Below, piece after piece: positions 21,001 to 24,000 of a DNA stretch of 64,000 nucleotides; position 1 is the stretch's first letter, and each line of letters opens with the position of its first letter. This DNA is from Escherichia coli (lineage in GTDB: Bacteria; Pseudomonadota; Gammaproteobacteria; Enterobacterales; Enterobacteriaceae). The DNA lies in NCBI RefSeq assembly GCF_045037415.1, contig NZ_CP173438.1. One strand, written 5' to 3'. Made by a program: the position numbers.

Positions 21001-24000
21001 CCAGGGACTCCTGCACATGAAGACTGGCAGCATAAGCCTTCTGATAACGTTTTTTCGCTTCCGCACGGGCAGGCTTGCCGGAGGATGTTCGGGGAATACT
21101 GTGGGGCGGCAACAGATCGATATCCGCGGTAACGCCAAATTCGCTTTGGATCCGTGCTGCCAGCGCGTGGATAAGCTGCCCGCGACGTTCTTCATCGCTG
21201 ATCCGACACTGGATCTGCAAAATGATTTTTTCCTGGGCGGTAACAAAAGCAATCGCATCGCCAGAATGAATTTCCGGTTCCTGTTCCGCAATATATTCAA
21301 TATCCTGCGGCCAGATATTACGGCCACGAATAATAATCAGATCTTTAATGCGTCCGGTGACATACAGATAACCGTCCAGCAGATAACCGAGGTCGCCGGT
21401 GTCTAACCAGCCCGTCGCGGCAATCTCGTCTTGTGAAATCTGGTCGCCAAAGTAACCGCTCATCAGGCTAGGGCCGGAGATGCAAATATGGCCTACCACA
21501 CGTTCCGCGACAGGTATACCTGCTTCATTGCGGATTTCAATGCCATGTTCCGGCAACGCTTTACCGCAGTTGACGAAAGTCGATACGGCGCGTGTTTCAG
21601 CACCCGGCGCGACGGCTTTACCCTGGTATTCGAGGATGTCGCGATCCACTTCGTTAACCACAACCCCGGAAGCTTCATCAGAGAAGCTGACAGCCAGCGC
21701 ATTTTCTGCCAGTCCGTAGCACGGCATGAAAGTTTTATCGTCAAAGTTGACCTGACGGAAACATTCAGCGAATTGATGGAGTTGTTCTGCGGAGATGGGT
21801 TCTGCACCAATACCAGCGACGCGCCAGCAGGAAAGATCCAGTTCAGCGAGATCTTTTTCATTCACGCGGCGCTGGCACAATTCATAGCCAAACGGCGGCG
21901 CAACGGAAACGGTGCCGCGATTTTTACTGATCAATTTAAGCCATTGCAGAGGACGCATGGCAAAATCCTGAGTGCGCAAATAATCTACTGAAAGCTGCGT
22001 GGCGACGGGGGTCAGGAGAAAGCCGACCAGTCCCATATCATGGTAGAAAGGCAGCCAGGAGACGCAGCGGTCGCCAGGGCGTAATTTAATCCCATCGTGG
22101 CTTATAGCACGTAGATTAGCCATCACTTCGCGGTGAGTAATGATAACGCCACGGGGAAAACGGGTGCTGCCGGAGGTGTACTGGAGGTAGGCGATATCGT
22201 TTGGAACTGGACGTTGAAGCGCAACATCGGCTTCCGGTAATGCCTTAAACCAGGCGTGGCTTAAAACATGTAATTCGGGATTGTTATGCGTCGCGGCATT
22301 GACCAGTGGCAACCACTCATCACCAGTGATAATGGCTGCGGGCTGGCAACTTGCCAGTAACCCCTGCAGTTTGGCGCTCCAGGAATCCCGCTGACCGACG
22401 CCCATTGGAATCGCCAACGGGACGGCGACTAAGCCGGCATACTGGCAGGCAAAAAAAGCCTCTACAAACCCGCTACTCGTTTCGGCAATCAGTGCCACGC
22501 GATCGCCTTTTTTCAGGTTCAGCGATAACAACCGCTTCGCACCAGCTTCGGCACGCGCTTTTAACGTCTGATATTCCAGTTGATCTTCAAGTTGGCAACG
22601 TCTGTCATAAAAATTCATTCCAGCGCTACTCAGAGCGGCATAGTCCAAAGCATCAACCAGCGTTGGAAAATCGGCATAGCGCATAGGTAGGGAATGCGTA
22701 AAGATTTTATTAGACATATACACCACGAAAAAATTGGATATCAAAAATAAAATGACAATAATGCGGTGGATTATATAGGCATAAAAGATAAATGAGATAG
22801 TATTTTCATCGGTGCGATATTGAACATTGATTTAAATAATAGGTTTTGTTTTGTTGTTTTTATTGTGAATGATATTTGATTTATGAATGTATTAAGAATG
22901 AACCTTGTCTGACCGCATTAAATCGCTAAAAGGCATTGTGGCGCTTCTTCGTTGGCTGTGATCTTATCGTAATCATTAATAAATAATATTTATTCTTATT
23001 TTGTATTCATGGTGTTGATTATTAAGATGCCGTTCGTTGCTGTTGCAACCTGTTTTTCATCGTTAATTATTTGTTATCCACAGAGATATGGAATGCGATC
23101 TGCTGATGATTAAAATTGAAAAAGTAATTAATAAAAATGACCTTAAGGCATTTATCGCTTTTCCGTCATCACTTTATCCCGACGATCCAAACTGGATACC
23201 CCCTTTATTCATTGAACGCAACGAGCATTTGTCTGCGAAAAATCCGGGGACGGACCATATCATCTGGCAGGCGTGGGTGGCAAAAAAAGCGGGGCAGATA
23301 GTTGGGCGTATTACCGCGCAAATAGATACCTTGCACCGCGAGCGTTACGGCAAAGATACCGGTCATTTCGGCATGATTGACGCCATTGATGATCCGCAGG
23401 TTTTTGCCGCGTTGTTTGGCGCAGCGGAAGCGTGGTTGAAGTCACAAGGTGCAAGTAAGATCAGCGGTCCTTTCAGCCTGAATATCAATCAGGAAAGCGG
23501 ATTACTGATTGAAGGTTTCGATACACCACCCTGTGCGATGATGCCGCACGGTAAACCGTGGTATGCCGCGCATATTGAACAATTGGGTTATCACAAAGGC
23601 ATTGATTTACTGGCGTGGTGGATGCAGCGAACCGATCTCACTTTCTCTCCGGCGCTAAAAAAACTGATGGATCAGGTGCGTAAGAAGGTGACCATTCGCT
23701 GCATCAATCGCCAGCGGTTTGCCGAAGAGATGCAGATCCTGCGTGAGATTTTCAATTCTGGCTGGCAGCACAACTGGGGATTTGTGCCGTTTACCGAACA
23801 TGAATTCGCGACCATGGGCGACCAACTTAAATATCTGGTGCCGGACGATATGATCTACATCGCTGAGATTGATTCTGCACCCTGCGCGTTTATTGTCGGC
23901 TTGCCAAACATCAACGAGGCGATTGCCGATCTGAACGGATCGCTCTTTCCCTTCGGCTGGGCAAAATTGCTGTGGCGTTTAAAAGTCAGCGGTGTGCGAA

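Follow-up and report, generated by a model that had tools for sequence, protein, structure and literature searches.

Results

Sphingolipid Genes on Both Sides of an AT-Rich Spacer

The window (by which we mean the whole stretch of Escherichia coli DNA that was analyzed, 64,000 nucleotides) holds two sets of genes that face away from each other across a short AT-rich spacer. The genes are the known sphingolipid genes of E. coli: aasR, epi/cerR, acpR, and spt, running leftwards, and yghO/aca, running rightwards.

18633 to 19805, minus strand: spt, serine palmitoyltransferase, last gene of the operon (600 bits to NCBIfam equivalog NF047599, whose cut-off is 500)
19805 to 20053, minus strand: acpR, specialized acyl carrier protein (Pfam PF00550), with a local dip in G+C to 0.406
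20085 to 20999, minus strand: epi/cerR-like reductase of the NAD-dependent epimerase/dehydratase family (Pfam PF01370)
20996 to 22717, minus strand: aasR, fatty acyl-AMP ligase family (NCBIfam NF006624, 874 bits), first gene of the operon
22718 to 23087, no strand: the whole divergent spacer between aasR and yghO, 370 bp, G+C 0.297
23088 to 24230, plus strand: yghO, monocistronic and convergent with glcC, with a conserved start codon at 23106

The leftward genes overlap or are closely spaced (the start of epi/cerR lies over the stop of aasR), which gives them the structure of an operon. A first-pass annotation of this DNA had called them a lipid operon, and that name can now be sharpened: they are the sphingolipid genes named in PMC9386255. 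AasR is a specialized acyl-ACP (acyl-AcpR) synthetase whose BL21 orthologue, ECD_02851, has been characterized biochemically, and epi/cerR is ECD_02852 in the same work (PMC9386255); the AasR, AcpR, and Spt proteins of BL21 are all biochemically active (PMC9386255 for the AasR work). YghO matches no family among the Pfam and NCBIfam models. It is a homologue of the Caulobacter N-acyltransferase CC_1154 (aca, or bacterial ceramide synthase, bCerS), as assigned in Fig. 9 of PMC9386255 (“aca: CC_1154, yghO ECD_02850”). The locus thus has what marks a sphingolipid locus, namely Spt with an adjacent dedicated acyl carrier protein, an acyl-ACP synthetase, and a reductase, and LptF/LptG paralogues cluster with the five biosynthetic genes. 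The corresponding locus of UTI89 has been drawn beside those of Caulobacter and Sphingomonas (2026 preprint). Coding G+C at the locus is 0.50–0.545, acpR (0.406) excepted. The right half of the window was annotated from strain p4A; the window and strain 4/1-1 diverge after 33718.

Extent and Composition of the Spacer

Where does the spacer begin? It had earlier been placed at 22745–23087 because a TTG at 22744 was taken as the start of the ligase gene; the AT richness reported for it stands, and its left edge moves to 22718. The start of aasR is the ATG at 22717 (MSNKIF...), which is conserved across genera and aligned from residue 1 in many of them (tblastn); RefSeq uses either 22717 or 22684, depending on the genome. 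With the ATG at 22717, the spacer is 370 bp long, or 388 bp if yghO starts at its universally conserved ATG at 23106.

By either left edge, G+C is 0.297 (29.7%, or ∼70% A+T), compared with 0.484 for the whole window, 0.524 for aasR, and 0.499 for yghO, and 100-bp segments inside the spacer range from 0.23 to 0.38. Equally low values occur in 6.3% of all 343-bp windows of the 64 kb, most of them in K2 capsule region 2; the neighborhood has 26 intergenic regions that are 100 bp or longer, with a median of 0.42, and only 3 of them reach 0.31 or less. In TpA steps and A/T tracts, the flanking coding DNA scores ∼0.04 each; the spacer has two to three times as much (0.098 and 0.132), on par with the H-NS-bound K2 capsule region 2 (0.105 and 0.118). 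A+T far above average over a few hundred base pairs, together with enrichment in TpA and A/T tracts, is the profile of an H-NS type of target. A tracts show no significant phasing at 10–11 bp, the level seen being equaled by 16% of shuffled sequences, and the spacer is free of tRNA-like elements and repeats. As a sequence feature, an AT-rich divergent promoter region is commonplace: the element is of a common sort, and it is the locus that is interesting.

A Layout That Is Old and Widely Kept

That the spacer is a divergent control region, as first proposed, agrees with everything we see of its layout: the genes point apart, no gene lies between them, and over 40 species of Enterobacterales have kept the arrangement along with a spacer that is AT-rich and free of ORFs. 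In 41 of the 44 loci that encode YghO relatives, aasR is divergent from yghO, and the relatives' spacers (270–1100 bp) are always richer in A+T than their flanks. The spacer is almost certainly the shared on/off region of both gene sets.

The word “accessory,” which had also been applied to the region, does not survive. The spacer is found in 4157 of 5426 complete E. coli genomes (77%), the genes around it have normal G+C, and the same chromosomal site, next to glcC, is occupied in E. whittamii and the cryptic Escherichia clades. The recently acquired AT-rich gene bodies that typify xenogeneic targets are not what is seen here; the sphingolipid genes are ancestral to Escherichia, and the locus is not a classic foreign AT-rich island.

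Two Halves with Different Conservation

Within Escherichia, the spacer divides into two parts.

22718 to 22820, minus strand: conserved half, presumed core promoter, 5′ leader, and ribosome-binding region of aasR
22821 to 23087, plus strand: hypervariable half on the yghO side, ∼270 bp, G+C 0.30
22842 to 22850, no strand: where the two halves meet, insertion site of IS1 in strain Ecol_AZ146 (9 bp of target duplicated)

The conserved half (∼100 bp) is 95–100% identical among E. coli alleles, the cryptic clades, and E. whittamii, which makes it at least as conserved as coding DNA, and the last ∼15 nt upstream of the aasR ATG (TTCRTGGTGTATATG) are kept in Citrobacter, Pseudocitrobacter, and Hafnia too. 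The other half is only 63–90% identical between Escherichia alleles (86% for the window vs. CFT073, against ∼98% in the flanks). Across E. coli genomes, identity is bimodal, with 480 genomes at 99% or more, 2 at 95–99%, and 3630 at 90–95%, so that the yghO side of the E. coli spacer comes as two sharply distinct alleles, between which the flanking genes remain 95–99% identical. The IS1 insertion, seen in one strain, fits an AT-rich target.

These data bear on one alternative to control by H-NS, in which the promoter spacer is AT-rich for ordinary reasons and H-NS plays no particular part: the conserved half would be AT-rich from promoter and UP-element composition, the weakly constrained half from AT-biased mutation, and low expression would come from weak promoters or the need for a specific activator. 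We consider this unlikely, if worth keeping in mind. Weak constraint would suit the variable half, whose rate of change is 2–4 times that of coding DNA, and the two halves have the same G+C. Against it, A+T richness has been held in all Escherichia alleles (G+C ∼0.29–0.32) despite heavy turnover of the sequence itself.

Candidate Promoters

Two promoter-like elements can be picked out, and their positions are predictions from sequence.

22770 to 22775, minus strand: predicted perfect −10 (TATAAT) facing aasR, with a poor −35 (ATCTCA) at 17-bp spacing
23043 to 23070, plus strand: weak promoter-like site facing yghO (TTGCAA, 16 bp, AATTAT)

The TATAAT is the best-scoring site in a sigma-70 matrix scan and is invariant in nine of nine Escherichia sequences. 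It would place the start of the aasR transcript at about 22763, with a leader of ∼45 nt. A perfect −10 with a weak −35 suggests that the aasR promoter is weak or activator-dependent, and as the sole strong promoter feature of the region, it also suits an ordinary spacer. The site facing yghO is overlapped by an inverted repeat (GTTGC-TGTT-GCAAC, 23036–23049) and is kept in most E. coli alleles, with partial deletion in two divergent Escherichia lineages. By score, the promoter-like sites of the spacer are no better than those of shuffled sequence (72% of shuffled spacers have the same best score), and neither a scan for consensus promoters and terminators nor the sigma-70 matrix scan gave anything beyond the shuffled level.

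Might the annotation instead have missed a gene in the spacer, for a small protein, a small RNA, or a cis-acting RNA? There is a 34-codon ORF at 23009–23113, and a hairpin in the aasR leader could pair CCACC with the GGUG of the ribosome-binding region. The ORF loses its start codon and frame in CFT073 and other alleles, and we rejected it as not conserved; no ORF of the spacer is conserved across genera. The leader folds no better than shuffles (z = −1.4), Rfam has no match in the window's spacer or in those of 11 related loci, and RNAalifold gives no consensus structure, and indeed no pairs, in the conserved leader of other genera. The idea is largely refuted, and we regard a hidden gene here as highly improbable.

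Are the Genes Expressed in the Laboratory?

It had been supposed that the locus is not expressed under laboratory conditions, and what bears on that supposition is indirect and mixed. Strain BL21(DE3) has the locus, and plasmid-borne Spt alone produces no 3-oxo-sphinganine in it; thus, expression of the aasR and acpR on its chromosome is not effective in rich medium at 30 °C. However, the authors of that work suspect the chromosomal copies of epi and yghO of being active, which goes against silence of the whole locus. We found no report in the literature of E. coli sphingolipids made from the organism's own genes.

H-NS at the Locus

The first-pass annotation took the AT richness as typical of H-NS-silenced promoters and offered this as a reason for the lack of expression. 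Silencing of the spacer by H-NS is plausible from its base composition, and what is known of the locus in uropathogenic strain CFT073 supports the proposal in some respects and not in others. The ChIP-seq list for that strain consists of per-gene scores and covers genes only (Hustmyer et al. 2022; PMC9765446); the CFT073 counterpart of the spacer is NC_004431.1:3544845–3545253. Between kpsM and yghS, c3714 is the sole gene scored as H-NS-bound, and its signal persists when rfaH or stpA is mutated and disappears in an hns mutant (PMC9765446). We identify c3714 as acpR because it is 249 nt long and occupies the matching place in the order of genes. Also scored as bound are yghS and yghT, on either side of the second AT-rich divergent spacer at the locus; aasR, epi, spt, and yghO are absent from the list (PMC9765446). 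Searching by locus tag, we found no further H-NS data for this locus in the literature, and the supplements for ETEC H10407 and of Higashi et al. do not mention the flanking genes. The papers that we searched also gave no expression data for these genes, hns and hns stpA mutants included.

How much can be read from a list of genes about the DNA between them? We calibrated the CFT073 dataset against base composition. Of the 11 genes in it whose G+C is under 0.44, 10 are H-NS-bound, G+C and H-NS signal are negatively correlated (Spearman −0.63), and most, although not all, isolated AT-rich spacers carry H-NS on their flanks. The genes that flank the isolated AT-rich caiT–fixA spacer have a signal just below threshold, so the unbound state of aasR and yghO is no argument against a patch on the spacer between them. 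The dapB–carA spacer (455 bp, G+C 0.319) has no H-NS on its flanking genes, so A+T content alone is not sufficient. The high-affinity H-NS motif TCGATAAATT has no match with two or fewer mismatches in 22718–23087; across the whole window, it is no commoner than chance, which means that it discriminates poorly.

An ordinary promoter spacer would account for the missing motif, for aasR and yghO not being scored as bound, and, on the precedent of dapB–carA, for an equally AT-rich spacer without H-NS on its flanks. It sits less well with a composition and length that equal those of high-occupancy H-NS-bound DNA in the same strain background, with the binding of acpR and yghS/yghT at the same locus, and with H-NS on the flanks of most of the calibration spacers. 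Weighing these together, we think that H-NS probably occupies the spacer itself; that H-NS is the cause of low expression is a more doubtful step, which we hold as possible and no firmer than that.

A PhoP Box in the Relatives

A different kind of explanation is that a dedicated, signal-responsive regulator (an envelope, Mg2+, or antimicrobial-peptide two-component system) acts on operators in the spacer, with H-NS at most a backdrop; in the relatives, this regulator would be PhoP. Using (T/G)GTTTA-N5-(T/G)GTTTA as the definition of a PhoP-box direct repeat, we find a perfect TGTTTA-N5-TGTTTA exactly once per locus in 12 loci of Serratia, Tatumella, Klebsiella indica, and Pantoea brenneri, always within the aasR/yghO spacer, with invariant half-sites around a variable 5-nt spacer. 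These spacers are longer than those of Escherichia. Other genera also have further conserved noncoding blocks, without consensus RNA structure, at a fixed distance from yghO, and within Escherichia, a 100-bp block conserved so strictly must bind something.

The box is absent from the window, CFT073, and other Escherichia spacers, where the best match has three mismatches, and a leader profile run with nhmmer against the window showed no detectable counterpart in the Escherichia spacer of the blocks that other genera conserve, which leaves unsupported a by-eye homology between the E. coli spacer and the relatives' long form. No motif common to the yghT–yghS and aasR–yghO spacers rises above shuffles, and no regulator gene lies within the E. 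coli locus. Candidate sites picked by eye for FadR (around GCTGTTGCAACCTGTTT, ∼23035–23051, 10 of 14 specified positions), Fur (near 22965, 12 of 19), CRP, and RcsAB are all within chance expectation for 370 bp read on two strands. A dedicated regulator appears to us rather improbable as the main control in E. coli.

Discussion

The account that we think probable makes the spacer a divergent promoter and control region common to the dihydroceramide genes on both sides, with an H-NS/StpA patch on it that dampens both promoters. The conserved ∼100 bp is under purifying selection and most likely contains the aasR promoter and leader; the ∼270 bp on the yghO side is evolving several times faster than the flanking genes and yet stays ∼70% A+T. 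In length, A+T, TpA steps, and A tracts, the spacer matches DNA that is coated by H-NS/StpA in vivo. Most likely, an H-NS/StpA patch would nucleate on the spacer and dampen transcription in both directions, perhaps with a bridge to the AT-rich patch in acpR, 2.7 kb downstream, and expression would require some signal or activator.

One can go further and imagine that the pathway is cryptic by way of a spacer patch bridged to acpR, that Escherichia has lost the PhoP-box switch by which relatives such as Serratia and Pantoea turn the locus on, and that the two spacer alleles are alternative wirings of the same genes. We regard this larger picture as a long shot; if it were true, ceramides might be made in the host by certain lineages, such as carriers of the window's allele, and not by others.

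Why should it matter? Sphingolipid pathway genes are present in about three quarters of E. coli strains and absent from K-12. Most non-K-12 E. coli carry a complete sphingolipid gene set, several of whose proteins have proven enzymatic activity, and bacterial sphingolipids affect both the robustness of the outer membrane and signaling to the host. The 370-bp spacer is where the decision to turn sphingolipids on or off must fall. Knowing whether H-NS silences it, what signal relieves that silencing, and how the alleles differ would make testable the question “does E. coli ever make ceramides?”

Comparison with Known Systems

The ceramide loci of Caulobacter crescentus and other Proteobacteria (spt, acpR, aasR, epi/cerR, aca/bCerS, and lptF2G2) have the same gene set as this one. 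The literature on sphingolipids of the Caulobacter type covers enzymes and transport, and the papers that we searched are silent on E. coli promoters and regulation.

The two discrete spacer alleles, with almost no intermediates and with flanks 95–99% identical, resemble the “regulatory switching” that Oren et al. reportedly described in 2014, in which E. coli intergenic promoter regions are said to be replaced by recombination. The difference is that divergence here is confined to the yghO-proximal 270 bp, and its cause may be recombination or fast local evolution.

PhoP-activated promoters often counter H-NS silencing, as at pagC and ugtL in Salmonella. Our locus is like them in the perfect PhoP-box-type repeat of the relatives' homologous spacers and in encoding outer-membrane lipid functions, a typical PhoPQ theme; it is unlike them in that every Escherichia spacer examined lacks the predicted box and in that the relatives' predicted box stands at an atypical distance from any plausible −10.

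The closest likeness for an H-NS/StpA patch is with the regions repressed by H-NS/StpA at caiT–fixA, leuO, bgl, and proU, where, as here, a few hundred base pairs of ∼70% A+T, rich in TpA steps and A tracts, lie between genes of normal G+C. Our spacer departs from leuO, bgl, proU, and systems like them in lacking the high-affinity motif and in being a predicted target of H-NS. The flanks of caiT–fixA in CFT073 behave as such a patch would lead one to expect. At bgl and proU, H-NS elements lie both upstream and downstream, and acpR, as a second, intraoperon H-NS patch, recalls just that arrangement.

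Results

The Spacer and Its Genes

Between aasR, read leftward, and yghO, read rightward, lies a spacer that is, as the first-pass annotation said, far more AT-rich than the coding DNA on either side of it: its G+C is 0.297 vs. 0.524 (aasR), 0.499 (yghO), and 0.484 (the window as a whole). That annotation placed it at 22745–23087. The right edge stands; the left one stemmed from a TTG at 22744 and gives way to the preferred ATG at 22717, so that the corrected spacer is 22718–23087 (370 bp). RefSeq starts of aasR vary among E. coli genomes, being either 22684 (MRY...) or 22717 (MSNKIF...), and cross-genus alignment favors the latter, with tblastn alignments beginning at its residue 1 in many genera. 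For yghO there are two candidate starts within 23088–23108: all genera share an ATG at 23106, preceded outside Escherichia by a TAAGG ribosome-binding site, and in Escherichia that site has been lost and an extra in-frame ATG at 23088 is the RefSeq start.

How unusual is such a composition? A G+C this low is reached by just 6.3% of windows of equal size across the 64 kb, and most of these fall within capsule region 2. In 26 neighboring intergenic regions of 100 bp or more, the median is 0.42, and three have a value of 0.31 or less. TpA steps (0.098) and A/T tracts (0.132) are two to three times as common as in coding DNA, with values equal to those of capsule region 2. That K2-type region (40096–47728) has a G+C of ∼0.31 across 7.6 kb, and in CFT073 the orthologous genes rank with those most strongly bound by H-NS; a further AT-rich region (55841–56650, 810 bp, G+C 0.34) lies upstream of kpsF.

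Genes flanking the spacer

First leftward gene, − strand: aasR, annotated as fatty acyl-AMP ligase (NCBIfam NF006624, 874 bits)
Second leftward gene, − strand: epi, epimerase/dehydratase-family reductase, its start overlapping the aasR stop
19805–20053, − strand, third leftward gene: acpR, acyl carrier protein of 82 residues
Fourth leftward gene, − strand: spt, serine palmitoyltransferase (NCBIfam equivalog, 600 bits; threshold 500)
16452–18598, adjoining spt: LptF/LptG paralogues
Right of the spacer, + strand: yghO, divergent from aasR

The "lipid operon" of the first-pass annotation is, by these family matches and the literature, the already known E. coli sphingolipid locus, because its BL21(DE3) orthologues have been characterized as dihydroceramide genes and the corresponding UTI89 operons have been drawn. 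Padilla-Gomez et al. characterized AcpR (ECD_02853), Spt (ECD_02854), and AasR (ECD_02851), the last being an acyl-ACP synthetase with specificity for the dedicated ACP, and gave the remaining dihydroceramide genes as epi (ECD_02852) and "yghO ECD_02850," which is aca and homologous to Caulobacter CC_1154 (PMC9386255); in a drawing, a 2026 preprint sets the UTI89 "sphingolipid operons," with LptF/LptG paralogues, next to those of Caulobacter and Sphingomonas. The genes preceding LptF/LptG encode a YtfJ-family protein (15861–16421), a 274-residue protein without a family match (15025–15849), and the flippase-like YghQ (13676–15025). In Serratia, a DgkA-type gene (prokaryotic diacylglycerol kinase family; L014:7285–7716) sits directly 3′ of yghO, where E. 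coli has glcC, and could encode a lipid kinase that acts on the ceramide product.

A Divergent Control Region in Two Parts

That the spacer is the divergent promoter or control region of this locus is well supported. It encodes no other gene: its one ORF of at least 20 codons (23009–23113) has a start and frame missing from other alleles, a search of the spacer against Rfam gave no match, and a possible leader hairpin of aasR folds no better than shuffles. Among 44 loci encoding YghO relatives (one genome per species), aasR-epi-acpR-spt diverges from yghO in 41, in Escherichia, Citrobacter, Serratia, Pantoea, Erwinia, Hafnia, Rosenbergiella, others, and even Pseudomonas; the spacers, of 270–1100 bp, are invariably richer in A+T than their flanks (by 0.06–0.27) and hold no conserved ORF. 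The promoters themselves are predicted, for consensus-type sites in the spacer score no better than in shuffled spacers and none can be called with confidence.

Our spacer alignment held nine sequences: those of the window and CFT073, of three further E. coli and a divergent one, of two genomes from cryptic clades, and of E. whittamii. The aasR-side half (22718–22820) is 95–100% identical in all nine, a conservation at least that of coding DNA, and carries on the aasR strand a perfect, invariant TATAAT −10 hexamer (22775–22770) with a poor −35; the ∼15 nt preceding the aasR ATG are kept in three further genera. The yghO-side half (22821–23087) is 63–90% identical among the nine, and between the window and CFT073 it is 86% identical with flanks at ∼98%. 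G+C is the same in both halves and 0.29–0.32 in every allele. Among all complete E. coli genomes, the distribution of identity to the spacer of the window has two modes (at least 99% in 480, 95–99% in 2, 90–95% in 3630, and 80–90% in 45), and therefore, two discrete alleles circulate in E. coli. There are almost no intermediates on the yghO side, whereas the flanking genes differ by only 1–5%; the pattern resembles that of allele replacement or of very rapid evolution at this site.

Distribution of the Locus

Of 5426 complete E. coli genomes, 4566 contain a match to window positions 22000–24000, and in many of them the identity is 100%. The left two thirds of the window are collinear with strain 4/1-1 and CFT073, and the right third matches strain p4A, which is CFT073-like in its IS4-truncated type II secretion cluster and K2-type capsule locus. 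At 33812–37466, a frameshifted IS4 copy replaces sslE, pppA, and most type II secretion genes; all that remains, as in CFT073, is part of gspK, a gspL with a frameshift, and yghD. A 430-bp low-coverage contig of Macrococcus sp. DPC7161 with 99% protein identity to E. coli yghO is most likely contamination of that assembly.

The first-pass annotation had spoken of accessory promoters, and an accessory island in the usual sense this is not: the spacer is found in 77% of complete E. coli genomes, the sphingolipid genes have a G+C typical of E. coli (only the spacer and acpR are AT-rich), and the locus adjoins glcC in other Escherichia species as well. K-12 lacks it through a deletion running from a yghO-borne IS5 to yghQ; in MG1655 (3130146–3131340, compared with window ∼14000–23130), IS5 lies ∼40 bp inside the yghO 5′ end and abuts a truncated yghQ. 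Because the spacer and all sphingolipid biosynthesis and transport genes are thus deleted, K-12 datasets are uninformative on this region. A separate deletion in the pangolin E. coli isolate M171-1 fuses a YtfJ-family gene fragment to the spacer, with the aasR-spt operon gone and yghO retained.

Proposed H-NS Silencing and Laboratory Expression

Is the spacer silenced by H-NS, as first proposed? The best available data come from ChIP-seq in CFT073 (Hustmyer et al., PMC9765446) and are scored gene by gene. In their complete list of 795 H-NS-bound genes in genome order, the only one between kpsM (c3698) and yghS is c3714 (249 nt), bound in wild type and in rfaH and stpA mutants and unbound in the hns mutant; yghS and yghT come next (PMC9765446). 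The acyl carrier protein gene is the only 249-nt gene in the interval (CFT073 RefSeq), and the gene count from kpsM agrees; hence, acpR is H-NS-bound in CFT073. It forms a local G+C dip (0.406) in an operon of otherwise normal composition and is that operon's only gene scored as H-NS-bound; aasR, epi, spt, and yghO are not on the list. The acpR DNA could act as a downstream partner in bridging by H-NS.

We calibrated these absences by setting per-gene H-NS values (bound threshold about 7) against sequence over the initial 133 kb of the CFT073 genome. G+C and signal correlate at ρ = −0.63, and 10 of 11 genes with G+C below 0.44 are bound. The genes flanking the isolated AT-rich spacer caiT/fixA score 5.6 and 6.6, just below threshold, so a patch confined to our spacer would leave aasR (1.7 kb) and yghO (1.1 kb) off the list; those flanking the equally AT-rich dapB/carA spacer score 0.7, so A+T richness alone is no guarantee of H-NS. 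The spacer has neither the high-affinity H-NS motif nor A-tract phasing. On balance, we lean toward predicting H-NS occupancy of the spacer, and H-NS involvement there is likely but unproven. The second AT-rich divergent spacer of the locus, yghT/yghS (11939–12111, 173 bp, G+C 0.30), heads the yghS-yghR-yghQ-...-lptF2-lptG2 arm; both short flanking genes are H-NS-bound in CFT073, and it holds a direct repeat, (A/T)TGTCACAAT, in two copies 17 bp apart.

For the proposed lack of laboratory expression, we found only indirect and mixed evidence. BL21(DE3) carries the locus, and with plasmid-borne Spt alone or AcpR plus AasR alone its lipid profile equaled that of empty vectors (Padilla-Gomez et al., PMC9386255); therefore, the chromosomal partner genes were not effectively expressed (rich medium, 30 °C). 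Against full silence, once 3-oxo-sphinganine was made, sphinganine-like and ceramide-like spots appeared, which the authors tentatively assigned to chromosomal ECD_02852 and ECD_02850 (PMC9386255).

A PhoP-Type Repeat in Relatives

In a k-mer census that covered the spacers of 23 genera, blocks recurred much more widely than they did in shuffled sequence. In long-spacer genera, the ∼400 nt 5′ of yghO hold several conserved noncoding blocks, such as AAAAGCATTAAGTGGTAAAA, GATAAAGTCAGTAAAC, AAAAGCATAATATGCTTAA, and TTTTTCTTATC, at fixed distances from the yghO start codon (Serratia L014:5590–6019 and homologous stretches; alignments A3 and A4 of relatives' spacers); the clearest, AAAAGCATTAAGTGGTAAAA on the yghO strand, with other blocks around it, keeps a near-constant ∼300–317 nt from the conserved ATG. 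These blocks look like DNA-level sites, because RNAalifold predicts no consensus structure for them; no Rfam family matched them.

About 75 nt upstream of AAAAGCATTAAGTGGTAAAA and 348–373 nt from the yghO ATG, the aasR strand carries a perfect direct repeat, TGTTTA-N5-TGTTTA, the published form of the PhoP box. It occurs once per locus, at constant position, in 12 loci (eight Serratia, two Tatumella, Klebsiella indica, and Pantoea brenneri), with invariant half-sites and a variable 5-nt spacer, and zero times outside the aasR/yghO spacer in the ∼600 kb of DNA examined.

TGTTTA-N5-TGTTTA in comparison loci

L014:5602–5618; L016:2453–2469; L017:2330–2346; L021:4362–4378; L023:5625–5641
L039:5603–5619; L040:5607–5623; L045:5601–5617; L048:5621–5637; also L015, L018, L019

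This pattern suggests PhoPQ control of the sphingolipid genes in Serratia, Tatumella, Klebsiella indica, and Pantoea; our literature search found no link between PhoP and these genes. The best PhoP-box match in Escherichia spacers has three mismatches, and a profile of the relatives' conserved leader found no match in the window, so the Escherichia spacer is a shorter, lineage-specific version without the putative PhoP module.

Discussion

We conclude that the AT-rich feature is genuine and that it is the control region of a locus both known and interesting. Four points deserve follow-up: conservation in two parts, the pair of discrete alleles, the binding of acpR by H-NS, and a PhoP box present in relatives but not in Escherichia. 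The spacer itself is a typical AT-rich divergent promoter region, with no evidence of anything categorically new, and in the locus that it serves, the LptF/LptG pair matches the lptF2/lptG2 sphingolipid transporter genes recently described for Caulobacter.
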